Part shown: positions 1-18,952 of the stretch, one piece after another | Numbering within the stretch: position 1 is the first letter of the stretch | How the letters are laid out: the number at the start of each line of letters is the position of its first letter | Origin: a virus | Lineage: Duplodnaviria; Heunggongvirae; Uroviricota; Caudoviricetes | Strand: one strand, 5' to 3' | Length of the DNA: 18,952 bases | Virus record (IMG/VR): IMGVR_UViG_2563366990_000003 | Coordinates: 1 to 18,952 of that record | Position numbers and translations under genes: made by a program | The notes under the pieces: model-generated | What the model was told of the DNA's origin: nothing | The model's input: the letters and a program-made list of their open reading frames with translations, nothing else | The model's database searches: none

Positions 1-102
1 CTGGTACCGTTCGCCCTCCGGGGTGCTTATCACGAAGCCGCACGACTCCGCTGGCGCACACCGCCGGGCATGCACCAGAATCGCTGATTCAGTCTGTGTC
101 AT
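1..102 (-). CDS. K: Tail assembly protein K-like, N-terminal 34 codons only; gene continues past the window start
   Basis: ATG at 102 lies 10 nt downstream of the L stop, in the position lambda K occupies. Translation MTQTESAILVHARRCAPAESCGFVISTPEGERYQ contains an ESCGF motif I recall from K-family proteins. Frame is open to position 1. Confidence 0.65.
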   Translation of the reverse strand, partial: MTQTESAILVHARRCAPAESCGFVISTPEGERYQ

Positions 103-112
103 AAAACGGGAT

Positions 113-811: not shown

Positions 812-1140
812 CAGTTCACCACCTGCTTAAACTCCGCGCTGAACTCAACGCGCAACATCCCGACCCGCGCAGACCACCCGGCGCAGGTCACCTTTATCTG
901 CCGGTATGCATAGGGTGGCTTCCACAAAAATGCCTTCCAGCCCCCGTGCTCTGCCAGAAACGCTTCCAGATGCCGGGCCTCCTCCCGGGTCACGGAAAGC
1001 GTCACCCGGTATGTTTTCAGGTCAGCATTCAGCCCTGCCGCCATACGCTGTGAGTACCCGTCACCAAAACGCACTTCACGCACCGACGGCTGCGAGTTCA
1101 CCTCCATATCCGGCTTCACTTTCCAGCGAAAGGTTTTCAT
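811..1140 (-). CDS. M: Minor tail protein M
   Basis: 109-aa ORF, the same length as lambda gpM, with recognisable similarity (MKTFRWKVKPDM...). ATG start overlaps the H stop. Confidence 0.93.
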   Translation of the reverse strand: MKTFRWKVKPDMEVNSQPSVREVRFGDGYSQRMAAGLNADLKTYRVTLSVTREEARHLEAFLAEHGGWKAFLWKPPYAYRQIKVTCAGWSARVGMLRVEFSAEFKQVVN

Positions 1141-3782: not shown

Positions 3783-3825
3783 CGTGGTCACCTCCTGAAA
3801 TGTCCTCTGATGCCATCAATAACTG

Positions 3826-4583
3826 TCACAACCTCCTTCCCTCCTCCCCGAAACGGACTCCACCGGCGAGGCCCGCCGCCTTCTGCATCAGTACATCATT
3901 TTCGTCCGGCGTCTCCGCCTGCCCTTCCTCTGCCTCCGGAGCGAACAGGCTGAAATCCGCCGGATGCATATCCGGATCGCAAAAAAACAGGCTGAGTACG
4001 GCGTACGTCAGCCCGGAAAAATGCATATCCAGCTGGGTATCCTGAAAATAATGCGTGCAGTAAAAACGTCGCCAGTCGGCATATTCGGTGGATGTCATCC
4101 CGGCAAGCATGGCGCGCCAGTCGGCTCTCCCCATCTCACGCGCCAGTTTCAGGACAAAGTTCAGCTCGCCTTCGAATGCTTTTTTGATGTTACCGGCTCA
4201 GTCGCTTCTGCTTTCCCGGTTGGTTCAGGATCGGCATCGTGCCGGTTATCCAGCATACCTGAAAGATAAAGCACCCGGTTCGTTGCCTGATTCAGTGCAT
4301 CAGCAGGCCATCCCAGCATCACTTCACGGCGGATCTGCTGCATCTCTGTCTCCGGAGATGCCAGAGTGCCTTTGAGGGAATGGGAATGCCATAGCGACAT
4401 CGCCACAAGCAGGGATGCCGTTTCCAGATATCGCTGGTTAATGTGCACGGCATCATGCTCCGTTGTCTCCTGTTGTGCTGCGTCTGAAACAAACTTCATA
4501 TAATCAAACCGCTGCAGCGCAGACAGCTCCGACAGCGTGACGGACACCCCGTTATATTCAAATTGTTCTGTTTTCAGGAACAT
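3826..4583 (-). CDS. Tail assembly chaperone G-T fusion, made by a programmed -1 ribosomal frameshift at 4179-4185
   Basis: The -1 frame relative to G is closed by TGA at 4198-4200 and open from 4197 down to a stop at 3826-3828. The only slippery heptamer in the G/T overlap is A_AAA_AAG. Predicted product is G residues 1-135 followed by about 117 T-frame residues. Lambda makes G-T the same way at the equivalent position. Confidence 0.8.
4161..4583 (-). CDS. G: Tail assembly chaperone G (zero-frame product)
   Basis: Internal ATG at 4583 with GGAGGAG RBS. The 140-aa product begins MFLKTEQFEYNGVSVTLSELSALQR, close to the lambda gpG N-terminus and the same length. The ORF-track start at 4697 lacks this support. 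Confidence 0.9.
   Translation of the reverse strand: MFLKTEQFEYNGVSVTLSELSALQRFDYMKFVSDAAQQETTEHDAVHINQRYLETASLLVAMSLWHSHSLKGTLASPETEMQQIRREVMLGWPADALNQATNRVLYLSGMLDNRHDADPEPTGKAEATEPVTSKKHSKAS
4179..4185 (-). promoter_or_regulatory. Slippery heptamer A_AAA_AAG for the G to G-T -1 frameshift
   Basis: Read directly: minus-strand TCA AAA AAG in the G frame, 6 codons before the G stop. It is the only X_XXY_YYZ site inside the window where both frames are open. Confidence 0.75.
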
Positions 4584-4599
4584 GCTTGATCTCCTCCCC

Positions 4600-5349
4600 T
4601 CAGCCCGCAGCGCCATCCGTGACGGTGATCTCCGCCACCGCCGCAAACTCACCGTTGCCGGTGACAACAGGGATCTGCGCTTTACCTGCCGCAACACCTT
4701 TCACGATGATCGTGTTCCCTTTCACGGTAATGGTGGCGAAATTCTGATTCGCTGAGGTTGCGCGGAACGTTTTATCCGTTGCGCCTTCCGGCTGAACGGC
4801 CACGGTCAGGGTGATATTCTGACCTTTTGCCACATTCCCCGTTAGTGGCGTCACGGTAATACCGGTGACCGGTGTGATTTCTCCCCGATCCTCAGCCAGC
4901 GACGGACGACCGATATTGGTGATTTTCACAGTGCGGGTGATCACTTCTTTGGCGGTCACGGATTTACCAATGGCGCTCACCCAGCCACGGAACACATCCA
5001 CCGTGCCGTTCGGGAAGCGGATTTTGTAGGCCCGGGTCTCGCTGCTGTCAAACCAGGCAATCAAATCACGCTGCCCTTTCTCGCCGGGCTTCCAGGCCAG
5101 CGTAAAACTGGTGTCACCGGCAGATTTCTGCCCCTGCCCGGTGGATACCCAGTCAGCATCCTCATCATCCAGATAGTTATCGTCGTAGGATTCCGCCGTC
5201 ATCTCGCCGGGGGTCAGATCCTTTATTTTTGCCAGGCGCGTCCAGTCATCATCTGACAGCGGGTTTGCCCAGGCATCGCCATTTCCGGTATAAACCCAGA
5301 GCGTGGTGCCGGAACCTTTTACCGGCGCAAGGGGATTAGGGAGCGTCAT
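4600..5349 (-). CDS. V: Major tail protein V, with C-terminal Ig-like domain
   Basis: 249-aa ORF with extensive similarity to lambda gpV along its length ([45 protein letters not shown]...[14 protein letters not shown]). ATG start. Confidence 0.95.
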
Positions 5350-5356
5350 AACGTCC

Positions 5357-5755
5357 TCACATCTGGTAAGTAATATTCCACTGGAGATCAGCCGATCCCC
5401 ACATCATATATTCGTCATCCCGGCGATAGTCATACCCCTGAAGATTCATCTTCAGCAGTAATGCACTTAGCCCGGGAACCGCCTCCAGCGCCGGAAGTAT
5501 TTTTTCTTCCATCCACATATCCAGCACGGAGTCCGTCTCTTTCGCCCTGAGAAACACCTCAATATGAAGCACGGCCTCCCAGGTCCCCTCGTCAACAAAC
5601 TCCTCCGTCGCAGAAGCATCTGTCAGATAAACCGCCACCGCAGGCAGTTCCTGTTCATCAATAAATACCGGGCGGCCGTCAAACCAGTTCACCCGCTCAG
5701 AAATATTTTCTTTCAGGGCAGACAGAACTGCCGCCCGTATTTCACGGTGTTTCAT
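5357..5755 (-). CDS. U: Tail terminator protein U
   Basis: 132-aa ORF similar to lambda gpU (MKH.E.RAAVL.AL...GYDYRRDD). Correct position between Z and V. Confidence 0.9.
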
Positions 5756-5767
5756 ACACCCTCCCTG

Positions 5768-6397
5768 TCATTTTCGTTTCAGCACCAGGCGTAACTGATG
5801 CGCCATGGCCGTCATCATCTGCGCCGGTAATTTTTCCCGGTACATCCGGTCCCGTTCACGTTCAAAGGTTTCTGCCAGCGGTCCGGCAGTCGGAATCTTC
5901 ACCACTTCGATCGGCAGACGGTGGCGTTTCGGCCTCCCTTTGCTGTCCGCGCCGCTGGACGATGGTGCCCACGGCATACGCTGCATCACATGCCAGCGTC
6001 CGTTAGCCAGCCGGGTGATAAAGGCGTCCGGGATCCGTCTTTTCCCCACAATCAGCACACTGCCGCCCCCTTTCAGGGCCGCACGCTGTCCTTTCTTTCT
6101 CCGTTTTCTGCGGGAAAGTCGAACGCGGGCCTCCCCCAGTTTGATGGCGGGCAGGTTGCCGGTATTGATGTAAACCTTTGCGTAAACCTTATCCGGTCGT
6201 GCCGGACTTAACCGGATGCGGGCACGGATAAGACGACGGGGAACGGCCAGCTCCCTGGCAACTGAAGAGGCCGTTTTCGCAATAATGGCCCCCGCCACGC
6301 GGTTCAGTGTCGTGGCAGAGGCCCGGGGAACGGCACGGCGGTCAATTGCATCCAGATTTTTCATGGCCTGCGCCAGACCTTTTATTGCCATACTCAT
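5768..6397 (-). CDS. Z: Tail completion protein Z
   Basis: Similarity to lambda gpZ (MAIKGL.QA..NL...RRKRRKKGQR...KGGGSVL.VG.RRIP.AFI..L.NGRWHVMQR). Start could be ATG at 6397 or the second Met at 6391. Confidence 0.9.
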   Translation of the reverse strand: MSMAIKGLAQAMKNLDAIDRRAVPRASATTLNRVAGAIIAKTASSVARELAVPRRLIRARIRLSPARPDKVYAKVYINTGNLPAIKLGEARVRLSRRKRRKKGQRAALKGGGSVLIVGKRRIPDAFITRLANGRWHVMQRMPWAPSSSGADSKGRPKRHRLPIEVVKIPTAGPLAETFERERDRMYREKLPAQMMTAMAHQLRLVLKRK

Positions 6398-6675
6398 TCC
6401 TGTTCGACAAAAATCCGGGGTTTACCGTTGTACGTGTCATAACGGGTCACCGTCAGTGTGCGCCCCGCAAACACAACAACATCATGACGGGCCGGACGGT
6501 ACCGGGCTGAAAACACCACCAGTGACAACTGGCTGCCCGAAAGCGCCCCCATCTCCGCGGACTCTTCCTCCGGCATCACGTCATACACTACGCCGTTAAT
6601 CTCCGCCTGTTTGCCCATCACCCGAACGGTCGCCCCGTCCATCCGGCAACACATTCGCGTAAACAGATCAGACAT
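6394..6675 (-). CDS. Head-tail joining protein, FII-like
   Basis: 93-aa ORF in the position of lambda FII, immediately upstream of Z, with weak by-eye resemblance to gpFII. Start is uncertain: ATG at 6675 overlaps the upstream gene by 8 nt and three further in-frame Met codons follow. Confidence 0.55.
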   Translation of the reverse strand: MSDLFTRMCCRMDGATVRVMGKQAEINGVVYDVMPEEESAEMGALSGSQLSLVVFSARYRPARHDVVVFAGRTLTVTRYDTYNGKPRIFVEQE

Positions 6676-6994
6676 TGATTTTTACCGCCACAGTGGCGCT
6701 GTTTGCAGGAGCATTTTCCCAGGCTACCCCCGCAGCCACCGCACCGTCTGCAGCCAGCTGCACAACCCCGTCCTTCAGATAAACCACCGCGCCGGACTGA
6801 ATATCGTCAGCAGACTGTTTGGGCAGCAGGAACACGCCTTCGGCAAAACCGTCACCGGCATCACCGGCAGGAATATCGGTAATGGCCACTGCCACCATAC
6901 TGCCGACCACCACCGCAGCACCGCTCAGGATGGTCTGATCTCCGGCATTCACCAGTTCAATGGTGGTGCCGTCCTGTACAAAATTTTTCGCCAT
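6668..6994 (-). CDS. Small Ala/Gly/Val-rich head protein (DUF2190-like; possible decoration or cement protein)
   Basis: 108-aa ORF directly downstream of the major capsid gene, with GGAGAAA RBS and ATG at 6994. Composition and position resemble the small head proteins that follow HK97-type capsid genes. The family assignment is from memory and the function is not established. Confidence 0.5.
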   Translation of the reverse strand: MAKNFVQDGTTIELVNAGDQTILSGAAVVVGSMVAVAITDIPAGDAGDGFAEGVFLLPKQSADDIQSGAVVYLKDGVVQLAADGAVAAGVAWENAPANSATVAVKINV

Positions 6995-7010
6995 AATGCT
7001 GTTTCTCCGG

Positions 7011-7060
7011 ACAGCCCCTGTGGGGCTGTTTTTCAGGCATAAAAAAAGCCCTTTCGGGCA
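7011..7060. terminator. Paired stem-loops between the capsid gene and the next head gene
   Basis: Read directly. 7047-7058 forms GCCC-GAAA-GGGC followed by 7 T on the minus (sense) strand, 22 nt after the capsid stop. 7011-7029 forms an 8-bp stem (ACAGCCCC/GGGGCTGT) followed by T5 on the plus strand. Confidence 0.4.
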
Positions 7061-7081
7061 GTGATTGTGATAACGCGGTTA

Positions 7082-9061
7082 TCAGGCCACCGACGAACGC
7101 ACCAGACCGCGCCAGTCAAGTGGTGCCACACCGGCATCAATACGAATTTTTGTGGCAATGCCGTCAGTGGTGAAACCTTCCTGCTGATCAATGTATGGCG
7201 TGTCCACACCATCCAGCCAGGCCACTTCAATGGTGTCAGTGCCCTGTGCCGCCGCCAGATACCAGGTTTTCGGATCTGCCGCATCAAGACGCGCTTCCGC
7301 AATCACCTCAGCAAAGTTCTGGATGGGGTTAATGACACCGGCGTTTGCATCCGCCCCTTTCACACTGGCCGATTTGATGGTCTGGTTCGCCACCGTCTCC
7401 AGTGCCACCGGTACCAGCATAAAGGCCGGACGGATATTCAGGGCGCGCTCGCCTTCTTTCTGCAGGCGCATCATCTGACGGGCCGCATCCAGTCCGGAAA
7501 CGGAGATCCCGCCGGTGGCAATATTTTTGTGATCGGCATGGAACAGCGCCTTACCGTCGGACAGTTTCGGGTTATCCGTCAGCACCTTGTAAACCAGGTC
7601 ACCAATCGTTGCCTTCGCCGCACGCCCCATCTTCATCGGCACGTCCACCAGCATATTCAGATCATCATTGATAATGGCCTGGCGGGTGATGGAGAAAATC
7701 TCCCCGTAGGTGGCCAGAGCAATGGTCTCCTTGCGATCTGAGGTGGTGATGTATTTATACTCCGCCCCCTCACGAACCTGACGCAAAGAACCAAAACCGC
7801 CCATCCCCACGCGATACGCTGTTTTGAAGTCTGACAGGCGTCCCTTACGGGTCCACTTCTGGAAGGTTTCTTCTGATTCCTCCCAGCCCTGGATCAGCCC
7901 CTTGTTCGACACATCCAGCAGGATATTGCCAAAATCAGAGGTGCTGTGCGTAAGCGCCAGCCCGACCATCTGCATGGGGTTATAACTGGCCACCCCAATA
8001 CCGCGCTCCGTCAGTGACATACGAGCCCATTCACGCAGGGTCATCCCGTTATAGGCGTTATCCTTCTCGACATTTTCAAATCCGGCACGGGCCAGCATCG
8101 CCTGGCGGATCCCGTCTCCCACAAAATTGCCGTTTCCGGCATAAATATGGGCCGGTGTGTTTTTGTTGGTCGGCGAGGACTCCTTGCCCATTTCATTCAG
8201 CAGACGTTCACGGGCCATTTCCAGCGAACAGTCAGGATCAGCCACGCACTGTGCCTGAAGCGTCTGATAGCGACCGCCGAACATGGCAAACAGATCGTTA
8301 ATGCCTGACATGCGTGCTTTCTGCTCAGCCATAACGCGGGCGCGAATGGTCGCCTCATCAGACACTGCCGGTACCGGTGATGGTTCTGTTACCGCCGGTG
8401 CAGGGATTGTCACTGTGGTATCACGCGGGGCACTGTTGCGTGGTGGAGTAATCATGTTTCGGATGGATTCCGGCATCTTTTTAAATTCCTCTGTACGTTT
8501 TGACTGAATACATGCCATTGCCTCAACAGCGGGTGTCACCTGGTCAGCAAATCCGTGTGCCAGACATTCGGCACCGGACATCCAGGTTTCATCCGCCAGC
8601 ATGGCGGCAATTTCATCGGTGGTTTTTCCGGTTTTCTGCGCATAGGCTGGCAACAGTACCGATTCGACTTTATCCAGCAAATCAGCATAACTGCGCATAT
8701 CCTCAGCATCCCCGCCACTGAATCCCCATGGCTTATGGATCATCATGAAGGCATTTTCCGGCATAATGACCGTATCACCGGCCATCGCAATCACAGATGC
8801 CATCGAGGCGGCAACGCCATCCACATACACGGTAATGGTCGCCCCCTGATTTTTCAGGGCATTAAAAATGGCGATGCCTTCAAAGACATCGCCACCCGGT
8901 GAGTTGATGTGGAGATTAATGTGGGTGATATCACCCAGAGCATTCAGTTCGCTGACAAACTGCTTCGCGGTAACTCCCCAGAAACCAATCTCGTCATAAA
9001 TATAAATATCCGCGTCACCCGGCCCCCCAGCCTGCATCCTGAACCAGGATTTATTCTTCAT
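7082..9061 (-). CDS. Fused prohead protease (S49/ClpP-like) - scaffold-like linker - HK97-fold major capsid polyprotein
   Basis: About 659 aa from ATG 9061. The N-terminal part has the serine-protease-like region (HINSPGGDVFEGIAIFNAL...MASVIAMAGD). The middle is a charged helical segment. The C-terminal roughly 320 aa looks like an HK97-type capsid protein. The ORF-track GTG at 9253 would overlap the portal by 200 nt, so I prefer 9061, which overlaps the portal stop by 11 nt. Confidence 0.85.
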   Translation of the reverse strand: MKNKSWFRMQAGGPGDADIYIYDEIGFWGVTAKQFVSELNALGDITHINLHINSPGGDVFEGIAIFNALKNQGATITVYVDGVAASMASVIAMAGDTVIMPENAFMMIHKPWGFSGGDAEDMRSYADLLDKVESVLLPAYAQKTGKTTDEIAAMLADETWMSGAECLAHGFADQVTPAVEAMACIQSKRTEEFKKMPESIRNMITPPRNSAPRDTTVTIPAPAVTEPSPVPAVSDEATIRARVMAEQKARMSGINDLFAMFGGRYQTLQAQCVADPDCSLEMARERLLNEMGKESSPTNKNTPAHIYAGNGNFVGDGIRQAMLARAGFENVEKDNAYNGMTLREWARMSLTERGIGVASYNPMQMVGLALTHSTSDFGNILLDVSNKGLIQGWEESEETFQKWTRKGRLSDFKTAYRVGMGGFGSLRQVREGAEYKYITTSDRKETIALATYGEIFSITRQAIINDDLNMLVDVPMKMGRAAKATIGDLVYKVLTDNPKLSDGKALFHADHKNIATGGISVSGLDAARQMMRLQKEGERALNIRPAFMLVPVALETVANQTIKSASVKGADANAGVINPIQNFAEVIAEARLDAADPKTWYLAAAQGTDTIEVAWLDGVDTPYIDQQEGFTTDGIATKIRIDAGVAPLDWRGLVRSSVA

Positions 9062-10553
9062 GCTGGCTTTCGGTGTCACGCTGATACTGTCGTTCAGTTC
9101 CGGCACTGTTGCCTCCTTTGTCGTTGACGGGGTCAGTATCAAAGACCAGCCCCAGTCTGCTGTTTTCATCAATTTCAGCCTTGCGGCGACGTTTGACCTC
9201 ATCCGGATTGCGCCCGCCGGCACGCACCCAGTCAGATTCTGTCGCTGCACCACCCCGGATCTGAATTCTCCAGGCTTCAGCTTCCTTAACCGGGTCGATC
9301 CACGGCATCACCGGACCGGAATACGTCGCGTTATATAGCGTTTTCATCTCCACATCCGCCGGAATTTTCAGCAGACCTGCCGCAACCACCATATTCAGCC
9401 ATGTCCGGTACACCGGGCGGGTTACCGCGCCAATAAAACAGTCCTGCAGGATCAGGTAACCATCCGTGGACTCGACCAGCTCCTGCCGCTGGGCGCTGTA
9501 GGTGCCGTTATAGTTACGCGCCGCACTGGAAAAACTCAGACGACTGCCAGCTGCCACTGCACGCAACTGGCCGTTGCGGAAAGTTTCAAGGTTGGGATTG
9601 GGACGGTCAGATTTGACCATGCCGATATCCTCGCCCTTGCGCAAATCGTCATAAATAATACCCGGGGTGATATGGACTTCCCGCTCGGTTTCTTTGATCC
9701 CCGGATCTTCATAGTCCTGTCCGTCACCTTTACGGATATACAGTCCCAGCGCCGCAGCAATACGCGCCGCTGTCAGTTCCGCATCCTCATACTCTTTAAG
9801 GGCACTGATCCGCATCAGCACCCCCGATAACATGGATGAGCCTCGCGTCTGATGCAGACGACGAGTGAACTTCAGGTGGATCATTTTTCCGGCAGCGATT
9901 TCTTTCGTATCACTCTGCCGGCCGCTGACCGGATAATTTTTATAAACCAGATATTTTTTCGGTCTTCCCCACTCATCAAGAAAAACCCCCTGATTCAGCC
10001 CGGCGGATTCATCAGTGCGCATGGGAACAAAATCCGGCTCCATCGCCTCAAGCCAGAATGGCACTCCCGCCGTCCGTTCCAGACCGTTTCCCGCACCACT
10101 GACCATCTGCGCAAACACTTCACCATCCCGCAGCCAGGTCCGCAGCAGTAAACGTTCAAGCACGGGACGGGTATACTGCCCTGTCACATCCGGACTCACG
10201 GACCATTCAGCCCACAACCGGCGGATATCCGCAGCCAGCTCTGCCACCATTTCCCCGTTTTTTCGTAATGGCTGAGGCTCCACAATAATTCCCCTGGCAC
10301 CAATCACCCGCTCTTCCAGCTTGTCAAACACACCAATCACCAGGTCATGATTGATATCCAGAAAACGGACCTGCTCCCGCAGGGAAACCGCACCGTATTT
10401 ACTGAGCTGATCAGCAGAGCGATTTTCCCGCCGGGCTTTATGTGTCCGGGTCGGTTTCACCGCCTCATAGGCCATGATTAACGCCCTTGAACGCAGTCTG
10501 GCTGCTTTCCATCCGGGGGAAAACACGCCTATCACATCATCAATAATTGCCAT
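9051..10553 (-). CDS. Portal protein
   Basis: 500-aa ORF between the W-like gene and the protease/capsid gene. Size, position and acidic C-terminal tail are typical of lambda-family portals. ATG start overlaps the W-like stop. Confidence 0.88.
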   Translation of the reverse strand: MAIIDDVIGVFSPGWKAARLRSRALIMAYEAVKPTRTHKARRENRSADQLSKYGAVSLREQVRFLDINHDLVIGVFDKLEERVIGARGIIVEPQPLRKNGEMVAELAADIRRLWAEWSVSPDVTGQYTRPVLERLLLRTWLRDGEVFAQMVSGAGNGLERTAGVPFWLEAMEPDFVPMRTDESAGLNQGVFLDEWGRPKKYLVYKNYPVSGRQSDTKEIAAGKMIHLKFTRRLHQTRGSSMLSGVLMRISALKEYEDAELTAARIAAALGLYIRKGDGQDYEDPGIKETEREVHITPGIIYDDLRKGEDIGMVKSDRPNPNLETFRNGQLRAVAAGSRLSFSSAARNYNGTYSAQRQELVESTDGYLILQDCFIGAVTRPVYRTWLNMVVAAGLLKIPADVEMKTLYNATYSGPVMPWIDPVKEAEAWRIQIRGGAATESDWVRAGGRNPDEVKRRRKAEIDENSRLGLVFDTDPVNDKGGNSAGTERQYQRDTESQHEE

Positions 10554-10789
10554 TAAAACCTCGCCAGTTTAAATCCCGGTTTTCCCCGCCTGCGGCTCAC
10601 CATCGCGGCAAGCCTGCGTTCCCACTCCTGACGTCCGGCGCGGATCTGAGAAAGGCTTTCCAGCGTCAGTTGCTGCCCGTTGAAGGTGACAGACTTCCCC
10701 TCCAGTACGGCCATTTCCGCTTCACGGTACCGCTGTATCATTTCTCTGGCTTCTTCTGTGCTCACAACCAGCCTCCTGATGTTATCCAT
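10553..10789 (-). CDS. Head-tail joining protein, gpW-like
   Basis: 78-aa ORF between terminase large subunit and portal, the lambda W position. The C-terminus (RRRGKPGF) resembles the lambda gpW C-terminus (RRRGPAGF). ATG at 10789 confirmed. Confidence 0.7.
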   Translation of the reverse strand: MDNIRRLVVSTEEAREMIQRYREAEMAVLEGKSVTFNGQQLTLESLSQIRAGRQEWERRLAAMVSRRRGKPGFKLARF

Positions 10790-12885
10790 GGATTATCTTC
10801 CGCACGCTCCGTCCGCAGTTTTTTCTTCCGGCGACGGCGTTTTTCTGCCCCGGCCGTCAGTTCCGGGGATACCGTTTCACCAGAACGCGCCTGCGGGAAG
10901 ACGAGCCACGTTTCCCGCTGTGCCCAGTCCGGTGCGGAGGGCCAGCGGATCTTTTCATAACCATGCAGAACAGCAAGCGCATCCGCATAAACCAGCAGGT
11001 CAAACGCCTCGTTAGCGCCCCTGCCCGGTTTTCGCCATTTTCCGTCACTGCCGCGCTCTTCATAGGTCAGCTCATCGTAAAACCACCGCCCCAGCCAGTC
11101 GGGAAAGTGGATATAGTTCGGCCCTGGTGTGTCACGCCACAGGGCATTATTTACACGGTCCTTAAACGCATCCGTCTGAACCAGCCACAGCGCGACATCG
11201 CCACTGGCTCTGGCACGGCGGGCACTTCTGCCGGTATTATCCGGGAAGGTACGGTTAATCAGCCTGTCACGGCGAAGACCATCCCCCTTGAACAGAAACA
11301 CCCTGTTGCCCAGTCCGTCACTCCGGCAACGACGCCAGAAACGATAGGCGTTATCTGTCACCCCGGCTTCCCCTCCCGTATCCACCGCCATGGCCATCAG
11401 ACGCATGCGCACATCCGGATCAGAAGCCAGCGGCCATGTTTTATGGAACACATCCGTCAGCAACAAATCCCAGTCCTCCGGATATGCCGCCGGATCAACC
11501 GGCAGACTTTCACCGTTGGGACTGCATCGCAGTGAATGCCGGATGTTGTAGCGATCAACAATCCAGCGTTCCCCCTGCTCTCCGTATCCGGTGATCTGCA
11601 CAACAAAACGGCGATTTTTACCGCCCTGTACGTCAACCGTTGCCTCAATAAAACGCACACCATCCGGCACAGATCGCCGGGGAAACGGCTCGGCACGCTG
11701 TTCAAGCAGTTCACTTTTACGCTGTTCCGTGGCTGAACGGGGCAGATAGGGTCGTCCGATATCGGTGTTCACCACCGCTTTCAGGGTCTCTTCACTGCCG
11801 GTTCGCTCATACTCTTCTTCTGCCGCCAGCAGCTTAAAAATCAGTTGTTCCCAGGTCTGAAACGCCGCAGCCGGCCCCTCCATCCAGAAACTTGCTATTC
11901 TGGAATTTCGGGGGGTTCCGGTGATACTGCCATCCGCCGCTGCCCGTTCGCCTTCCCGCAGCCAGATCCCCTGGTTATTCAGTTCACGCTTCTGTTCCGG
12001 AGCAATCAGGCCGCGGCAGTGCGGACACATCAGGCGGGCCGCCTGCCCGGCAGCCACAAAATCAGGGTTATTCCGGTAACCGGTCATGTTATCCATCACC
12101 GGCTGAAAATATTCCCCGCAGTGCGGACACGGCCAGTACCACCGGCGGCGGTCTCCCCGGTTATACAGTGACAGGATCCCCGTTGTTGGCGGTGCCTCAT
12201 GTGCGCCACCACAACGCCATTTGGTATCGGTGATATCCCGCCCGGGCGAACTTTCGACCAGGGTCATCCCCGAGGACATAAAGGTGGTGGTACGCTTTGA
12301 GGCCAGGGTGAAGGCATCCCCTTCCCCGTCCACGTTTTCAGGGAAACGGTCATAATCCGTCAGCGCCACACGACGGTAATCCGAGGAGGAAAATACGGTG
12401 ATCGACGGCCAGCCAATTTTCAGGAATGAGCCGTCAAGAAACATTTTATCGTGGACGTTGTTGTCATTACGGGAAGGGCTGAGGCGTTTGCAGACCTCCG
12501 GGCTGTGGCGAAACGTCCTGGAAAGACGCGTTCTGGAATGCTCACGCGCCTTCGTCTCGGTCATCTGCACCACCAGCATGTCAGCCGGATCACAGATGAT
12601 GCCGTACACAATCCAGCCATCAATCAGCCCTTCGGTTTTCCCGGTTCGCGCCGGTCCGACAAACACCACCGCGTCATATTCACGGGCTGATAATGTATTA
12701 ATGGGGTCTATCATATAGGGCGTCAGCGATGACTCCCACGGACCGGAAGTATTGGCTCCCCGTGGTACCCGCATATAACGCCTGATGGCTTCCGCTACTG
12801 GTAACCGGCCAGGTGGGCGAAACAGCGAGGCCACTTCGCGCCAGATATCGGATGCGCGGCTATGGCTCTCGTTCACCTGATTCAC
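10762..12885 (-). CDS. Terminase large subunit (lambda gpA family)
   Basis: 707-aa ORF with a Walker A-like motif (VGPARTGKT), Cys-rich segments (CPHCGEYF, CPHCRG) and a basic C-terminal tail. The start is a GTG at 12885 that overlaps the small-subunit stop; no in-frame ATG is nearby. The exact start is uncertain. Confidence 0.88.
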   Translation of the reverse strand: MNQVNESHSRASDIWREVASLFRPPGRLPVAEAIRRYMRVPRGANTSGPWESSLTPYMIDPINTLSAREYDAVVFVGPARTGKTEGLIDGWIVYGIICDPADMLVVQMTETKAREHSRTRLSRTFRHSPEVCKRLSPSRNDNNVHDKMFLDGSFLKIGWPSITVFSSSDYRRVALTDYDRFPENVDGEGDAFTLASKRTTTFMSSGMTLVESSPGRDITDTKWRCGGAHEAPPTTGILSLYNRGDRRRWYWPCPHCGEYFQPVMDNMTGYRNNPDFVAAGQAARLMCPHCRGLIAPEQKRELNNQGIWLREGERAAADGSITGTPRNSRIASFWMEGPAAAFQTWEQLIFKLLAAEEEYERTGSEETLKAVVNTDIGRPYLPRSATEQRKSELLEQRAEPFPRRSVPDGVRFIEATVDVQGGKNRRFVVQITGYGEQGERWIVDRYNIRHSLRCSPNGESLPVDPAAYPEDWDLLLTDVFHKTWPLASDPDVRMRLMAMAVDTGGEAGVTDNAYRFWRRCRSDGLGNRVFLFKGDGLRRDRLINRTFPDNTGRSARRARASGDVALWLVQTDAFKDRVNNALWRDTPGPNYIHFPDWLGRWFYDELTYEERGSDGKWRKPGRGANEAFDLLVYADALAVLHGYEKIRWPSAPDWAQRETWLVFPQARSGETVSPELTAGAEKRRRRKKKLRTERAEDNPWITSGGWL

Positions 12886-13358
12886 ATATCGGCCTCATCA
12901 CAACAGTCAATGACTGCCTTTTCCAGTGTGTCGCGGATCTCATCAACCACAATCTGTACTTCATTCAGTTGTGATGCGGTCCACCCCCTGTCCCTCTCCA
13001 GCCGGTCAGGCCAGGTTTCCAGTACCTGAACTATCGCTTTCACCACGACAGAAAACGACCGCCTGACATCACTGACAGGCACGAGCAGACCGGTTTCCTG
13101 CTCAAATTTCAGTCGGTCACGTTCTGACTGGTACCATGCTTTACGCGCATGAGGATCCATTTCCTCGTTATCTACAGGCAGAGGAGCTTTCATCAGTTCG
13201 GCAAGGATATCTGTCAGTCGGTACAGTTTGAGATTGCTCTCATGACCACCGGCTGGGCTTATGTTTTTTACCCGAGCCGCGACAGTCTGTCGATGAGCAC
13301 CGGATAATGCGGCCAGTTGGGAAATATTCAGATGCAGATTTTTTAATTCACGATCCAT
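12882..13358 (-). CDS. Terminase small subunit (Nu1-like)
   Basis: 158-aa ORF with an N-terminal HTH-like segment (ISQLAALSGAHRQTVAARV), a strong GGGGGAG RBS, and a position directly upstream of the large subunit and about 150 bp downstream of the cos-like site. Confidence 0.78.
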   Translation of the reverse strand: MDRELKNLHLNISQLAALSGAHRQTVAARVKNISPAGGHESNLKLYRLTDILAELMKAPLPVDNEEMDPHARKAWYQSERDRLKFEQETGLLVPVSDVRRSFSVVVKAIVQVLETWPDRLERDRGWTASQLNEVQIVVDEIRDTLEKAVIDCCDEADM

Positions 13359-13499
13359 AACTCCCCCTGAAAATTATGTAAATACACGCCAGTGATGAAC
13401 AAAAAACAACCAAATTCGACACTAAAAATTTTTATTTTTCTATATATCAATGACTTACACTGGTGGTGATGGTGCCATAAAAATCAAAAAATGCGCCTT

Positions 13500-13525
13500 T
13501 TTCCGCGCCGCCCGCCCCGTGTTCA
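13500..13525 (-). other. Putative cos site (cosN-like GC-rich core) with cosB-like AT-rich spacer down to the terminase start
   Basis: The minus strand reads ACGGGGCGGGCGGCGCGGAAAAAGGCGCATTTTTTGATTTTTATGG. This resembles the lambda cohesive-end region (GGGCGGCGACCT followed by a T-rich tract) and sits at a lambda-like distance upstream of the Nu1-like start. Exact nick positions cannot be read from sequence. Confidence 0.45.
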
Positions 13526-13777
13526 GGCCCACCCCACCAGGAGGACCCGCAAAATGATAATGGTTATCATTTGTAATGTAGTCCGGTTTCTTCCACCATC
13601 GCACCGGACCAGCGACCATGAGGGGACAACGCCGCGCTCCGTTAACGCGGTAAACCCCGGTGTGTATCGTTTTTGATTATCCCCGCACACTCGCGCAGAG
13701 GAGTCTCCCTGTCGGGCTGCGGTCTCTGTTAATACGGGAATACGGCGACAATACCGCGCCATGGATAATAAGGTCGC

Positions 13778-14002
13778 TCAACACACTGGCTGTAATGCAG
13801 CCGATACCATGCGGCATTTAGCGGCATTCATCGTACACTCAACGGTTAGCTCTTCATTCGTGGCATTCACCTGAAAGGTCCGGGAGTATAATTGCGTACA
13901 TTTACCACTGAACGAACCTTCAACAAGAACACGACCACGCTGCAAAATACGGAACGGAATTGTTCCCTGAAAAGGCTTTACGGTTACCAGTAATTTCTTC
14001 AT
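13778..14002 (-). CDS. Hypothetical 74-aa protein with four cysteines, between Rz and cos
   Basis: The ORF-track start is a TTG at 14020. An in-frame ATG at 14002 has a GGAGAA RBS and begins MKKLLVTVKPFQG. The region looks lower in GC than its flanks. No family recognised. Confidence 0.5.
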   Translation of the reverse strand: MKKLLVTVKPFQGTIPFRILQRGRVLVEGSFSGKCTQLYSRTFQVNATNEELTVECTMNAAKCRMVSAALQPVC

Positions 14003-14025
14003 GCATTCTCCGGATAACAAAAATA

Positions 14026-14493
14026 CTAGTTAATACACTGAGTGCGGATATATTCCTGCGCCCCTTCCAGCTGCTTCTGCATTGTCATCAACCGTTCTCT
14101 GAGGATGAAATAATCCCGTTCAGCGGTGTCTGCCAGTCGGGGGCCGGTTGCATTATCCACGCCGGAGGTGCCGGTGGCTTCACGCACGGTACCGTGGCAG
14201 GTGGCGTTGATCCGCAGGCGCTTACGACCAGCGGCAACATCAGCACGCAGAGTTTCATTTTCAGCTCTCGCATCGGCTAATTCCCTCGAGTATTTTGCAT
14301 CGAGCGCAGCAACATCGCGCTGGCGCACCTGCATATCAGTAATGGTGGCATTCGCCTGTTCCAGCTCTCTGGCTTTTTTATCGCGCTGCGCTTTGTAGGT
14401 GATGGCGTTATCGCGGTAATGATTCAGCCCCAGACTAAGCGCACCACAGGCCACCAGCAAGGCAATGATGACCACACACAGAACGCGGTTCAT
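14026..14493 (-). CDS. Rz: Rz i-spanin
   Basis: 155-aa ORF with an N-terminal TM segment ([18 protein letters not shown]) and a charged coiled-coil-like periplasmic part. Position downstream of the endolysin and the embedded Rz1 frame support the call. Confidence 0.85.
14088..14273 (-). CDS. Rz1: Rz1 o-spanin (lipoprotein), embedded in the +1 frame of Rz
   Basis: 61-aa ORF with a lipobox (LVVSAC) and a Pro-rich mature part ([27 protein letters not shown]) closely resembling lambda Rz1. ATG at 14273 confirmed. Confidence 0.82.
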
Positions 14494-14494
14494 T

Positions 14495-14593
14495 TCACCA
14501 CCAGCGTATCTGACCGATGAAATAACCGGAGGCCATAATCACAAACACCAGCCAGATAAGGATGAACTTCCAGGTGGATAATTTTTCAGCCAT
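14495..14593 (-). CDS. 32-aa single-pass membrane peptide ORF, not in the ORF track
   Basis: Read directly: GGGAGA RBS, 8-nt spacer, then ATG at 14593. Translation is [32 protein letters not shown]. Its TGA stop is separated from the Rz ATG by one nucleotide. Confidence 0.4.
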
Positions 14594-14668
14594 CACTCGA
14601 ATCTCCCGAATCAGTTTGCTAAAATTAAACACACTTTCTCCTTTGACTTTTCCGGAGTCAGGAAACAC

Positions 14669-14702
14669 AAAACCCCGCTTGCTACCAACAAACGGGGTTT
14701 TT
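14669..14702. terminator. Bidirectional intrinsic-terminator-like hairpin between the endolysin and the small ORF/Rz
   Basis: Read directly: 9-bp stem AAAACCCCG/CGGGGTTTT with a 15-nt loop, flanked by T-rich tracts on both strands. Confidence 0.4.
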
Positions 14703-14791
14703 ACTTTTATTCACTTAGGTTTTGCCAGTTCGCAGGATTTCGTGTTATCCGTCCGCGTTGGCCAACGTCATTTTTCAGCAAAATATTCTGC

Positions 14792-15325
14792 TTATCTGTC
14801 GATTCCCCAGCACGCCAGCGCGCTCTCCTGGTCACGACGGGATATCTGGCCGTAACAGTTGTTTGAGCGGATACGGCAGTCTCTGCCACCGTCCTTAATC
14901 CACCAGCGAATCGCTTCACACGCTCCCCTGCGATCGCCTGCATTAATTCGTTTATAAAACGTCGACGGGAAACACTTACCGGGGCCAATGTTATACGGGC
15001 AGAATGACGCAATACCCGCTTTCTGGGGTTCGGTCAGTGGCACTCTGATGTTTTTCTCCACCCATGCCAGCGCCTTATCCCGTTCGATAGCGTTAACCCG
15101 GTCGCATTTTTCCTTCGACAGCTTCATGCCAGGAATCACAGGCTTACCATCCACCATGATGGCACCCCGGCAGATGGTCCAGATACCCGCACCATCACGG
15201 TATGCCGTGGTGTGGTTGCCTTCCTTTTCATCCAGAAACTGGTCGAGGATTTCAGGCGCAGAAGCCCCTGCGGCAATCAGCGCCAGAACGGCAGCTGACA
15301 GGCCGTATTTGATTTTTGCGTTCAT
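14792..15325 (-). CDS. R: SAR endolysin (phage lysozyme, GH24 / T4-lysozyme fold)
   Basis: 177-aa ORF. The N-terminus has a weakly hydrophobic Gly/Ala-rich SAR-like segment (YGLSAAVLALIAAGASAPE). The catalytic E-x8-D-x5-T triad is present (EGNHTTAYRDGAGIWT). It matches my recollection of the R lysozyme of Shiga-toxin-type lambdoid phages. ATG at 15325. Confidence 0.9.
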   Translation of the reverse strand: MNAKIKYGLSAAVLALIAAGASAPEILDQFLDEKEGNHTTAYRDGAGIWTICRGAIMVDGKPVIPGMKLSKEKCDRVNAIERDKALAWVEKNIRVPLTEPQKAGIASFCPYNIGPGKCFPSTFYKRINAGDRRGACEAIRWWIKDGGRDCRIRSNNCYGQISRRDQESALACWGIDR

Positions 15326-15352
15326 GGATATTTATCAGGATTTATAGCTCTC

Positions 15353-15403
15353 TTATTCCTGGATATGTCAGATATATAATCCGGTACTCACGATGAATAT
15401 AAT
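15353..15403 (+). promoter_or_regulatory. Candidate sigma70 promoter(s) for the plus-strand 106-aa ORF
   Basis: Read directly: TATAAT hexamers at 15375-15380 and 15398-15403 in a very AT-rich intergenic region 50-75 bp upstream of the ATG at 15451. The -35 elements are poor (TTATTC). Confidence 0.3.
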
Positions 15404-15450
15404 CAACAGGCACCAGGACACACCCGGTAACAACAAATGAGATTTTATAA

Positions 15451-15771
15451 ATGAATAATAATGACAACAATTTACGCAAAGAGTTTTTGCAGATAATGAA
15501 CGAAAATGTTAAATCAGAATTAAAAGCGCTTATCCCGGATAATAGCGAAACCACTCAGGCCATTCTCTCAGAGCCTTACGGCATGCTTTCAACAGAAACA
15601 CTGGATATCATTATCACCACATTAACACCATTGATGCTTCAGCATCTGAAGCACAACATTAACAAATGGTTTAATGACGAACTCAGTCACCCGGGTTGTT
15701 CATGGGATAAAAACTTTGCCTGTCTGCAAAAAAAACGGCTCTTCAATAAACTATCGCTTAAGTTCAGATAA
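15451..15771 (+). CDS. Hypothetical 106-aa protein, plus strand, convergent with and overlapping the 3' end of the 385-aa gene
   Basis: It is the only plausible plus-strand gene in the window. It is AT-rich, Asn/Lys/Leu-rich and predicted helical. ATG at 15451, weak RBS. No family recognised. Confidence 0.5.
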   Translation: MNNNDNNLRKEFLQIMNENVKSELKALIPDNSETTQAILSEPYGMLSTETLDIIITTLTPLMLQHLKHNINKWFNDELSHPGCSWDKNFACLQKKRLFNKLSLKFR

Positions 15772-16921
15772 CCGCCCCAAACCGCCCTTTCAGATAAGTC
15801 AGCCCCGGCTGGATCCAATCATCTGGCTCAGTCTTAAAGGGTGGAGTATTGAAATCACGAAGAACGGTCTCCCGCACAACTGCATCCTTATCAGCACCAC
15901 TGACCAGCGCTTCAATCTCAGCGGCTACCTGCAGATACCCCATGCAACGACCAATGCGCTTCATTAGTCCCTGCTTTTTATTGTTCTTCAGGTAATCAAT
16001 GGCAAATTCAATGAGCGTCTCACAGTGCTGGTGCGATGGCGGTGTTACTTTTCCATTTTCTGAGATAGTTATTTTCCCGTCATCACCGGATACAACAAAG
16101 GATGGCCGGTTACACTCCCATTCCTGGTCACTGAAATCTACCTTCAGAAAGAACGGCCCGATTTTTGTAAAGGAACCTTTGGCATCGTTCCCCTCATGAC
16201 GGAATACACCGACTCCGGCGGTAACGAGTTCACCGGTTATCGTATTTGTGTCTATTTCGATGCTTACGGGAATGGAACAGAGGATACCTGGACTTCTCTC
16301 AACATCATGTTTGATGGCCTCATGAAAGCCACCAAAAGAATGAGCAATGAAACAATCACTGGCGAGATGCGTCCCCTTTAAAAAATTATCCAGAATCTCA
16401 CTATTTGCAGAGCGCTCTCTGTTTTTTTGAATACGGAAACACTCTGCGAGATTTCTGCTCATCACTTTCCGGCAATAATCGTAAAACGCCGCGAACTGCT
16501 CATCACGGCGTTTTTTTTCACCTTCGGAAGGGATCTGCACCGACAGTTTTTTATTCAGTTCAACGACGCTGTTCTCCAGTTTTTCAATGCGTGATTCGAT
16601 ATCATCTTTTTCTGACTGTATCGTGTTATATGCATTGTTAATTTGTATGGTATACCGCTCTTCTGAACAGAGGCGCTTTTCCCGTGACTGTTCATCCCCT
16701 TCACATAAAGCGGCAGCAATATCCATGAAAAACTGCTTCGCCTTCTTTTTCGCCTCAGCTTCGTAAAATTCCAGCGTGGCACCTTCAGTACGGTCAAGAC
16801 TAATCGCCACATATGGCGACAACAACGACGGCTGCCCGGCAATTTCCAGTGCCACAGTAACAGTAATCTTATCCGGGTAATTATTTATCCCTTTAACAAC
16901 CAGTTCGTATTGTTTATTCAT
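15764..16921 (-). CDS. Hypothetical 385-aa protein inserted between holin and endolysin; function unknown
   Basis: ATG at 16921 lies 3 nt after the holin stop, with GGGGAGAG as RBS. The ORF is long and uninterrupted in AT-rich DNA. Architecture by eye: N-terminal domain, a central charged heptad-like segment (about aa 85-170) and a C-terminal Cys/His-containing domain. No signal peptide or TM segment. No family recognised. Confidence 0.8.
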   Translation of the reverse strand: MNKQYELVVKGINNYPDKITVTVALEIAGQPSLLSPYVAISLDRTEGATLEFYEAEAKKKAKQFFMDIAAALCEGDEQSREKRLCSEERYTIQINNAYNTIQSEKDDIESRIEKLENSVVELNKKLSVQIPSEGEKKRRDEQFAAFYDYCRKVMSRNLAECFRIQKNRERSANSEILDNFLKGTHLASDCFIAHSFGGFHEAIKHDVERSPGILCSIPVSIEIDTNTITGELVTAGVGVFRHEGNDAKGSFTKIGPFFLKVDFSDQEWECNRPSFVVSGDDGKITISENGKVTPPSHQHCETLIEFAIDYLKNNKKQGLMKRIGRCMGYLQVAAEIEALVSGADKDAVVRETVLRDFNTPPFKTEPDDWIQPGLTYLKGRFGAVI

Positions 16922-16924
16922 CGT

Positions 16925-17140
16925 CTACTCTCCCCGTGCCGCCTTGCGCCGGTCCTCTTTAATTTTGAAATACAGGTTTGTCAGGTACGTCAGCAACCCA
17001 AACAGCAGACTCCCCAGCACACCTATTGCCGCCCACTGAGACGGGGAAACCCTGTCCAGCAACTGCAGGAACCAGTAGCCCGTTCCCACCGCTGACGTGG
17101 TGTATGACACACCTGTTGTGATTTTTTCCATCTGGTACAT
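16925..17140 (-). CDS. S: Class II holin of the phage 21 S21 pinholin family, with dual-start motif
   Basis: 71-aa product [71 protein letters not shown], near-colinear with S21 as I recall it. It has two TM segments and Met1/Met4 starts (antiholin/holin). GGAG RBS. The ORF-track start at 17194 is a GTG further upstream. Confidence 0.9.
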
Positions 17141-17216
17141 ACCCCGTCTCCCGCAATCCGGAAGCTCACAACAATATAAAGACCACCGGCACACACCGAT
17201 GGTCCCTTGCGCATGC

Positions 17217-17462
17217 TTACATCATCATGTCGCTGTCAGGTGTGGGTTCACCGCCATCTGAAGCACTCCCGTCACCCGCAATGCCTTCCGGCTCCGGAAC
17301 TGCCGGTGCGCCCAGCAGTTCATCCAGAATGGCATCCACTTCTGCATCAAGACGCGACTCAAGGTTCTGGCGGAGTTTCTGTTTCAGTGCGCTCAGGACT
17401 TCTTCAGAGCGCAGGACTTCCTTCACTGCTTCAGCAGTGACCAGGGATGTGATTTCTGACAT
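17217..17462 (-). CDS. Hypothetical acidic 81-aa protein upstream of the holin
   Basis: ATG at 17462, following the 60-aa ORF stop by 26 nt. Product [51 protein letters not shown]... is helical and acidic with non-random composition. The RBS is weak. Confidence 0.5.
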
Positions 17463-17487
17463 GGGATTTTCTCGCTGAAAGGGGTTG

Positions 17488-17670
17488 TTAAGGAGTAACG
17501 GGCTCTTCGGGTTTGCTTCCGGCTGACTGACTGGCGCTGATTTTCTCAGCGGCCCTTTTATCAATCTGCCTGCGCCAGAAATCGCGCACGGCCCTGTACC
17601 CACCCGAAAGAAGATACAGCACACAGACCGCCGTACAGAAGTACAGCATCACCTGATGAATAAATGTCAT
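17488..17670 (-). CDS. Hypothetical 60-aa small membrane protein
   Basis: ATG at 17670. One predicted TM segment (VMLYFCTAVCVLYLLSGGY) followed by a basic/polar tail. Same strand and operon context as the lysis genes. Confidence 0.45.
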   Translation of the reverse strand: MTFIHQVMLYFCTAVCVLYLLSGGYRAVRDFWRRQIDKRAAEKISASQSAGSKPEEPVTP

Positions 17671-17770
17671 AATTTCTTACCGTTATGGTTGACTAAGTAA
17701 ACAGTTTTCATTTAAAAATGCCGATGACGAAAGTGGTAGTATCTTTCCTTGATTCTCCATGAATCTCACA

Positions 17771-17806
17771 CCGCCAGAGGTCTCAGGCAACTGGCGGCTT
17801 TTTTTA
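17771..17806 (+). terminator. Plus-strand intrinsic-terminator-like hairpin, abutting the stop of the large minus-strand ORF
   Basis: Read directly: 7-bp GC-rich stem CCGCCAG/CTGGCGG with a 13-nt loop, followed by C plus T7 on the plus strand only. The minus strand has no U-tract after the stem. Confidence 0.4.
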
Positions 17807-18952
17807 TCATGCCGCGGCATCCGCGTTGTTCACTTCCACCTTCACACTGTCAATCAGCAGCGTATATGTCGCCGCCTTTGATATGCCTGTCAGTTGCAGT
17901 TTGTCCGCCGCCCCTGATGCCGGAGATTTCACCAGTGTGAACGGTGTACCCCGTTTCTCATCCAGTACCGGCGTCACCTGAATGCTGTTGTTTCCGGCAA
18001 ACTCAAAAGCCAGTGTGTGCCATCCGTTATCAAAGACCCCGAACGTATCCAGCTTCGCATTCTGCTTCTTGTGGTACATCGCGTTCAGGTTCGTCGCATC
18101 CGTCTGCAGGAAGAAGGACATCAGCATGTCGTTGCCTTCCTCTGACAGCGTCACTCCCTCCGGCAGGGACGACAACTGCCAGTAAATACCCAGGGCAAAC
18201 TGATTCGGCACCAGTGCGCCCGGCACCTTAAACCGCACGCTCACACGTCCGCCTTTCTTCAGCAACTCTGCCCCCTGCCCGGCGGCATCATGCTCCAGAA
18301 ACCAGATGTGGCTTTCCGGTTTGTTCAGTTGCAGGGCCTTACCACCGGTGGCACCCTCATCACTGACCACGGCCTCAGCGATGTTTTTATCAACACTGTC
18401 TCCGCTCGCCGGTTTGTGATAATAGCGCCAGCCCTGTGATGCCAGGTCTTCACCGGACGCCAGCAGACTCATCAGGGTTCGGTTACTGACCGGGGCTTCC
18501 GGCTCTCTCTCCGGGCCTTCACCGGAAGGTCCGGTGGGCTTCACCGTATCAGGCTGTTTTCCGGTAATGAATTCAGCGGTTCTCCCGGCATGCACCAGAA
18601 TCGCCGTTGCCAGACGGTCGGAAATAATCCCACGGCGAGCCCATGAACTGAAATGGCTGGCCCTGTCCACAGATGTCCAGGTCTTCTGGTCATTACGCCA
18701 CTTTGAACCGTAATAACCGACGGCTTCCAGGTCCGGGTCTTCTGCCGGGTCATTGGTCTGCACATTCGCACCATTCTCATCCGTCATTAACGGTACAAAG
18801 AAAATGTTCTGCGACTCCTTACCCTTATACCCTCCGTATACTGATGCATACCCTTCCGCATGACGCTGCTTCCAGAAATACGTTGTGTCCCCGCAAACCC
18901 ACGGTACCGCTGATGCGCTGCCTCCTGTGCTCTGTGATGCCTGACCGGCAAG
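17807..18952 (-). CDS. C-terminal 381 codons of a larger late-operon protein truncated at the window edge; possibly NanS-p-like
   Basis: The frame is open from 18952 down to TGA at 17807-17809; the ORF track shows only the part from the first in-frame ATG at 18787. Large ORFs in this position upstream of the holin in Shiga-toxin-type prophages are NanS-p-like sialate O-acetylesterases as I recall. I cannot confirm this by sequence recognition. Confidence 0.6.
   Translation of the reverse strand, partial: LAGQASQSTGGSASAVPWVCGDTTYFWKQRHAEGYASVYGGYKGKESQNIFFVPLMTDENGANVQTNDPAEDPDLEAVGYYGSKWRNDQKTWTSVDRASHFSSWARRGIISDRLATAILVHAGRTAEFITGKQPDTVKPTGPSGEGPEREPEAPVSNRTLMSLLASGEDLASQGWRYYHKPASGDSVDKNIAEAVVSDEGATGGKALQLNKPESHIWFLEHDAAGQGAELLKKGGRVSVRFKVPGALVPNQFALGIYWQLSSLPEGVTLSEEGNDMLMSFFLQTDATNLNAMYHKKQNAKLDTFGVFDNGWHTLAFEFAGNNSIQVTPVLDEKRGTPFTLVKSPASGAADKLQLTGISKAATYTLLIDSVKVEVNNADAAA

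Follow-up and report, generated by a model that had tools for sequence, protein, structure and literature searches.

What does a single gene that faces backwards in the lysis region of a lambdoid prophage do there, and what does it belong to? The question is raised by a stretch of 18,952 nucleotides (nt) of a virus of the Caudoviricetes (IMG/VR record IMGVR_UViG_2563366990_000003, positions 1 to 18,952; hereafter the window). Its genes follow the order of the lambda late operon and all family-supported genes run leftward on the minus strand, except for one open reading frame (ORF) on the plus strand, at 15451..15771, with an ATG start and 106 codons plus a stop. This small gene lies between the endolysin gene R and a late ORF of 385 codons (15764..16921, minus strand), to which it is placed tail-to-tail. 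We define X as the late protein found in this tail-to-tail arrangement, recognized by a shared C-terminal domain of about 120 amino acids (aa). The small ORF is, with near certainty, a genuine protein-coding gene, and its sequence relationships indicate that it is probably inherited as a module together with X. As the best explanation we tentatively propose that it is a reverse-oriented moron between X and the endolysin gene, and that its product is a modulator or inhibitor partner of X.

The coding status of the ORF follows from a family match, a conserved frame under selection, a conserved start region and a confident predicted fold. Residues 1-104 match positions 56-158 of the 159-position profile of phrog_1853 (E-value 1e-43), and the homologue from CP-933O matches the same family with an E-value of 3.5e-47. 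Homologues keep a frame of 104-106 codons at 40-78% aa identity, with P42, G44 and L58 invariant. Between clades, the pairwise ratio of nonsynonymous to synonymous substitution (dN/dS, Nei-Gojobori) is 0.15-0.47 with dS saturated, and purifying selection extends across the whole 105-codon frame, including the two-thirds of it that overlap nothing. All clades, including relatives with 40% identity, keep the ATG and, 6-8 nt before it, a GAG(G/A) box; in the window the Shine-Dalgarno-like GAGA stands at 15439-15442, 8 nt before the ATG. AlphaFold2 yields a confident model with five helices (predicted local distance difference test, pLDDT, 88; predicted template modelling score, pTM, 0.78). The composition of the gene sets it apart from its surroundings, with a GC content of 0.37-0.41 versus 0.53-0.54 in the endolysin gene and an AT skew that turns positive. 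The first-pass annotation of this DNA had considered that the ORF might prove frameshifted in homologous insertions; about 112 intact copies stand against 5 broken ones, which favours a gene. It had also drawn the feature from 15353 to 15771: the ORF within these limits is intact, but coding starts only at 15451, and 15353-15450 is leader. That the ORF is spurious and the real feature lies on the minus strand, e.g., as a 70-aa ORF at 15342..15554 that overlaps the first 35 codons and the leader, is scarcely credible in view of the conserved plus-strand frame under purifying selection. The 70-aa ORF itself was rejected as a gene, having no family match and neither frame nor length conserved in the other loci. 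Long plus-strand ORFs elsewhere in the window (285, 226, 190, 167 and 154 aa) have no PHROG match; the small gene is thus the sole intact plus-strand gene, and the earlier description of it as the only plus-strand coding candidate holds for intact genes, a plus-strand gene remnant being also present at 16136-16378.

As an ORF the small gene is not new, being already annotated, uncharacterised, in hundreds of genomes. An identical protein is encoded on 166 public E. coli contigs, and of 5426 complete E. coli genomes at least 674 contain the gene by blastn, 27 of them with a close variant and about 648 with a CP-933O-type copy that is about 69% identical; annotated copies in complete genomes are labelled "hypothetical protein". 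The family is nevertheless tiny and confined to enterobacterial phages, with 15 clusters in an exhaustive phmmer search of 1.84 billion representative proteins. Its known members include orf6 of Shiga toxin 2 (Stx2) phage 86 (YP_794053.1) and the "unknown protein" of CP-933O in EDL933 (WP_000138558 family), which share 45-63% aa identity with the window protein and are likewise oriented backward between holin and endolysin. In phage 86, orf6 is also tail-to-tail with a fusion of a DUF1327 domain and X that is annotated as "YdfR family protein", whereas CP-933O is without X. No function has been assigned to either protein or to phrog_1853. Neither mention of the gene in the literature on DUF1327, ydfR and lysis-cassette morons or hotspots nor published expression data for it were found. 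The annotation of the CP-933O-type copy in strain DEC4E by RefSeq (PGAP) uses a later start, giving 90 aa instead of 104 aa.

The protein has a mass of 12.4 kDa and an isoelectric point of 7.8 and is predicted to be soluble. It is hydrophilic (maximal 19-residue Kyte-Doolittle value 1.23; grand average of hydropathy -0.53) and has no transmembrane segment; a role as antiholin or holin-type regulator was ruled out on this ground and by the lack of a match to any holin family. No helix-turn-helix domain of the Cro, CI or Aca kind is recognisable by sequence or fold. Pfam, PHROGs, PADLOC, NCBIfam, PDB sequence profiles and fold comparison gave no informative match that would indicate a function, and neither the small protein nor X has a significant match to toxin, antitoxin or defence families in PADLOC, Pfam or NCBIfam.

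The strongest indication of what the gene belongs to comes from its partner. In the window, the conserved domain of X corresponds to approximately residues 266-385 of the 385-aa ORF (15767..16126, minus strand, delimited by alignments) and carries the motifs ECNRPSF, H-x-H, GRCMGYLQVAAEIE, NPPFK and W..PG.TYLK; all the proteins compared share these motifs, the last in the form W..PG.YLK. The N-termini placed before it vary: in the window and in phage 86 the domain is fused to DUF1327, while in 12E129, 88-3493, JNE141411, ML775 and ERL03 it is preceded only by a short coiled coil. The core form measures about 185 aa, and the 93 homologues found are mostly hypothetical proteins of 185-217 aa. 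The domain has no match in Pfam, NCBIfam or PADLOC and no function by homology, and its AlphaFold2 model is poor (pLDDT 58) and unusable, so that no fold inference was drawn. The YdfR protein of E. coli K-12, a DUF1327 protein, is reported to bind RNase E at its catalytic N-terminal half and to be co-purified with RNA (PMC13232886; 2026), which suggests that late proteins of the DUF1327-X type might act on RNA decay in the host. The annotation of X is itself uneven. E. coli ATCC 25922 has an intact 297-aa DUF1327-X ORF (locus L009, 2494-3387, minus strand) with a full-length match to phrog_1085 (E-value 1.5e-189), which RefSeq (PGAP) gives as a truncated "YdfR family protein" pseudogene with the X C-domain left unannotated. 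Nearly all sampled rows that cover only the same 355-bp segment have no annotated feature there; these hits lie at 90-95% identity, a band that comprises about 537 complete E. coli records.

The tail-to-tail pair of small gene and X recurs in the loci of Stx2 phage 86, 12E129, 88-3493, JNE141411, ML775, ERL03 and P0126. It is also kept in relatives in which the small protein is 44% (P0012) or 40% (P0017) identical, with a 20-nt gap or a 33-nt overlap between the two genes. In these relatives the pair lies upstream of the holin gene, and in two loci the holin is of the lambda S type instead of the phage 21 type. The pair thus persists while its position and neighbours change, and the case for a module of the two genes rests chiefly on this. 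A set of 207 retrieved loci was classified with local tblastn. In all of the approximately 117 loci that carry the small gene, it faces against R, X and holin. X is adjacent in 6 of 7 loci with the window-type small gene and in all 42 with the phage 86 type (together 48 of 49, in viral contigs), compared with 0 of 49 with the CP-933O type. Copies of the CP-933O lineage form a single, nearly clonal deletion derivative, in which only codons 1-12 of X are left. Conversely, the small gene is missing from 78 of the 80 best X loci in the viral-contig collection, and X is followed directly by R, with no small gene, in prophages of the ATCC 25922 type and at the P0130 and P0135 loci; a search of viral contigs with P0012 as query found nothing. 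Since the small gene is nearly always with X outside one near-clonal lineage and X is often alone, the small gene would be either an accessory modulator of X or a passenger at its 3' end.

The 385-aa ORF of the window is a mosaic of four pieces, namely a DUF1327/YdfR domain (residues 1-83; 16673-16921, minus strand), a coiled coil, an insert of 94 codons and the C-domain of X. Identity to the 88-3493 type is 95.4% over 14707-16137, and to the Stx1_14040 type 94.9% over 16137-17134; relative to 88-3493, positions 16138-16424 form a net in-frame insert of 94 codons. The exact protein occurs only in E. coli KTE75 (ELE54172.1), on 2 contigs, and no complete E. coli genome covers at least 80% of 15300-16950. 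Given the breakpoints between types and this scarcity, the ORF as it stands in the sequence is a rare recombinant, and the relevant partner of the small gene is its C-domain. The first-pass annotation had seen in the small gene either a lysogen-expressed partner of the late-expressed 385-aa protein or a regulator acting by transcriptional interference. The tail-to-tail link with a late gene stands, being kept in distant relatives; the partner is to be narrowed to the conserved C-terminal domain, and the pairing is not obligatory.

The insert in the mosaic is the trace of a second cargo gene. Positions 16136-16378 (plus strand) encode the last 80 residues of a 210-aa protein, with 98.8% identity to P0161 by tblastn. 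They are followed by a terminator-like hairpin (GCAGAGCGCTCTCTGT with a T-run, 16407-16430), so that remnant and hairpin together occupy 16136..16430; the 385-aa ORF reads the remnant in antisense as its in-frame insert. Homologues of the remnant are 65% identical in Salmonella and 58% in Yersinia (tblastn). With homologues in these two genera at 52-65% identity, the 210-aa ORF is by its sequence a real gene, although the family has no Pfam, PHROG or PADLOC match. Yersinia prophages carry it inserted backward between tail genes I and J; the Salmonella copy is located close to sodC. The full gene sits backward in the gap between holin gene S and endolysin gene R (S-R gap) of Stx1_14040-type and Stx2_499-type phages, where it stands in place of both the X C-domain and the small gene; of it the window has only the 3' remnant. 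The 210-aa family (P0161-P0166) thus resembles the 106-aa gene as an alternative cargo of the same gap in the same backward orientation, but differs in its unrelated sequence and in having its own terminator-like hairpin. The full gene is unannotated in loci L003 (2182-2883, plus strand) and L012 (1501-2199, plus strand). A minus-strand "hypothetical protein" of 263 or 161 aa is annotated there that runs about 250 nt antisense into it, and the C-terminus of this protein is probably an annotation artefact.

How the small gene is transcribed bears on what it could do to X. The frames overlap at 15764-15771, the stop of the small gene lying 8 nt inside the 3' end of the 385-aa ORF, and the 8-nt overlap given in the first-pass annotation agrees with the ORF coordinates. 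Across loci this spacing is not conserved and ranges from a 33-nt overlap to a 20-nt gap, too little at any of them to accommodate a terminator. No plus-strand terminator lies between the small gene and X in the window or in loci L001, L004 and L006. The first plus-strand terminator-like site of the window is the one at 16407, 640 nt downstream of the small gene, and in the CP-933O type the holin gene is 256 nt from the small gene. As no terminator intervenes, a plus-strand transcript would run antisense into X or, in the CP-933O type, into the holin gene. If the small gene is transcribed, mutual antisense is unavoidable by geometry, which we regard as a sound deduction from the sequence. The earlier claim that the two transcripts are mutually antisense therefore holds on that condition. 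The claim that late transcription must cross the small gene in antisense also holds, since it needs to do so to reach R, Rz and the structural genes.

The gene had also been credited with its own promoter, and this was not confirmed. The upstream leader (15335..15450, plus strand) is a candidate promoter region, yet a sigma-70 scan of 15330-15450 found no promoter. Two perfect TATAAT hexamers seen by eye (15375-15380 and 15398-15403) have no usable -35 element, matching it at 2 of 6 positions each, and the first of them is seen only in the window/CP-933O clade. CCTGGATATGTC at 15358-15369 is the most promising candidate for a conserved -10 region; it is an instance of the motif CCCTGG(A/T)TATG(T/G)T that alignments show in all clades, including the 40%-identity relatives. 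Promoter activity of the leader is thus plausible. The leader RNA of the window has no significant structure (z = 0.76). In the phage 86 clade and in the relatives with 40-44% identity, a hairpin CGCCAGTG-(5-9 nt)-CACTGGCG followed by a plus-strand T-run is conserved 50-65 nt upstream of the small gene (L001, about 2390-2420; L002; L011; L020; L013, about 3925-3955; L014, 1338-1361). It is absent from the window, and the window and CP-933O clades have the TATAAT-containing sequence in its place. Of its natural variants, two preserve pairing through G-U when read as plus-strand RNA and one when read as minus-strand RNA, and it could be a leader attenuator or a 5' stabiliser. L006 has a similar minus-strand hairpin (3946-3972) upstream of its holin gene.

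From these elements we propose the following organization. In a lambdoid, Stx-phage-like prophage, the small gene would be inherited with X as a two-gene tail-to-tail module. A weak or regulated promoter of its own, separate from the Q-dependent late promoter, would drive its transcription, so that the gene would be on in the lysogen and/or early. Its soluble five-helix product would act on or with the X C-domain as a modulator or inhibitor. The transcript of the small gene would continue into X and the holin gene in antisense, and the small gene would in turn be crossed in antisense by Q-modified late transcription, so that induction would switch the balance from the small protein to X. The moron-like character of the gene is indicated by the adjacency of X and R in relatives without it, by its low GC and by its invariant opposite orientation. 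That the small protein acts as a functional modulator or inhibitor of X is, taken by itself, rather unlikely, and the transcription-collision switch is speculative. An extended version of the proposal, in which X is a late host-takeover or lysis-modulating effector and the small protein its opposite-strand five-helix inhibitor made in lysogens, would constitute a novel module. Here the inhibitor may also neutralise the X of co-resident or superinfecting phages, and a Q-antiterminated collision would release X at induction; we consider this improbable. Weighing against the proposal as a whole are the 78 of 80 X loci without the small gene and the CP-933O lineage without X, which show that the pairing is not obligatory.

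These same observations suit a moron without functional tie to X, a lysogen-expressed cargo for lysogenic conversion, superinfection exclusion or anti-phage defence that landed at the 3' end of X and co-transfers with it. The small gene remains intact without X in some 648 complete E. coli genomes of the CP-933O lineage, X is mostly found without it, its composition is AT-rich, and the S-R gap behaves as a moron hotspot that houses a second, unrelated reverse-oriented cargo in the 210-aa family. Yet chance adjacency is hard to reconcile with a pairing kept at 40-44% identity despite a new position and a different holin type. In addition, no PADLOC defence model matches the gene, and the lineage without X goes back to a single near-clonal deletion derivative that still retains the first X codons. 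An independent moron is a serious possibility, albeit a somewhat doubtful one.

Convergence itself could alternatively be the function, with the transcript as the main effector and the ORF secondary: convergent transcription or antisense RNA would damp leaky expression of X and holin in lysogens by interference or through RNase III-sensitive duplexes. The lack of a terminator, which would let the transcript enter X or the holin gene, and the invariant orientation fit such a role. However, selection acts on the full protein frame including its non-overlapping part, the fold is predicted confidently, the overlap or gap between the ORF ends is not conserved and the promoter scan was negative, which makes this reading distinctly unlikely. 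Even less probable is a toxin-antitoxin or toxin-immunity pair of the classical kind. A conserved C-domain that bears variable N-termini and has a small partner next to it does recall polymorphic toxin/immunity architecture, but the genes are convergent in every locus examined and thus not co-transcribed, no toxin-antitoxin or defence family is matched, and co-occurrence is loose both ways, X standing alone in nearly all of its best loci and the small gene in 49 of 49 CP-933O-type loci. A strict toxin/antidote pair was ruled out by these co-occurrence data. Compared with type II toxin-antitoxin systems, moreover, the larger gene of the present pair is a late phage gene that often occurs alone.

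The proposed modulator of X has partial precedents among known phage elements. Like lambda bor and other lambdoid morons, in the sense of Hendrix and Juhala, the small AT-rich gene is inserted within the lysis cassette or beside it and faces against the late operon; relatives that are otherwise syntenic lack it, and its expression is expected while the prophage is repressed. Bor, however, is a lipoprotein with a signal peptide that is encoded downstream of Rz under a defined promoter, whereas the 106-aa protein is predicted to be cytoplasmic and helical, and its gene lies between X and R, is tied to one late gene and has no promoter or terminator that passes the scans. Lambda oop/cII, paQ/Q and P22 sar/ant are antisense switches that operate via short non-coding RNAs. 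The likeness to these lies in an opposed unit that overlaps a transcript of the lytic cycle, with an interference that would be reversible on induction; the 106-aa locus differs in encoding a conserved protein.

The remainder of the window conforms to a late operon. From right to left, the minus-strand genes comprise a DUF6645/SASA-type esterase, DUF826, holin, the 385-aa ORF, endolysin and Rz/Rz1, followed by terS (DUF1441), terL, portal, a protease-capsid fusion and the tail genes Z/U/V/G/T/H/M/L. The late gene upstream of the 385-aa ORF (PF07041, E-value 1.6e-34; phrog_1085, E-value 2e-151) encodes a phage 21-type class II holin S (16925..17140, minus strand; PF04971, E-value 1.5e-32). The late gene downstream of the small gene encodes endolysin R of the lysozyme family, with a hydrophobic N-terminus (14792..15325, minus strand; PF00959, E-value 2.2e-23). 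Rz and Rz1 follow at 14026-14493 and 14088-14273 on the same strand. Scans of the window with Rfam and for tRNAs were empty. Directly upstream of the holin gene a terminator-like hairpin with a 13 bp stem (AGGGACCATCGG...CCGGTGGTCTTT; 17178-17207, minus strand) lies in the late operon. It is kept in L004, has analogous counterparts in L001 and L006, and is presumably read through by late transcription under Q control. Between endolysin and Rz, a strong 15-bp hairpin at 14669-14701 (AAAACCCCG...CGGGGTTTT) resembles a minus-strand terminator. Beside it a small hydrophobic ORF (14495-14668, minus strand) matches with its last 45 residues the 45-position profile of phrog_6632, a family of unknown function. 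The 660-bp interval between terS and Rz (13400-14020) contains gene fragments only, i.e., an ORF at 13778-14020 (minus strand) that matches the middle of phrog_2571 (positions 98-172 of 291) and one at 13523-13762 (minus strand) that matches the N-terminal part of an Rz-like spanin (phrog_6954); its appearance is that of a sequence that has decayed or recombined.

In Stx-type and other lambdoid prophages, the gap that separates holin from endolysin is commonly regarded as a fixed lysis cassette. Our analysis shows that it holds X, a late gene whose product frequently has the RNase E-binding YdfR domain fused to it, together with at least two backward cargo genes that are alternatives at this site. 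New here is that one of these, the small gene, travels with X as a tail-to-tail pair, even where identity is as low as 40% and the position of the pair is different. Should the small protein modulate X, it would provide a handle on an unstudied late function beside the genes that control the release of Shiga toxin. If the gene is instead an independent moron, it would add another lysogen-expressed candidate for exclusion or fitness effects in enterohaemorrhagic E. coli.
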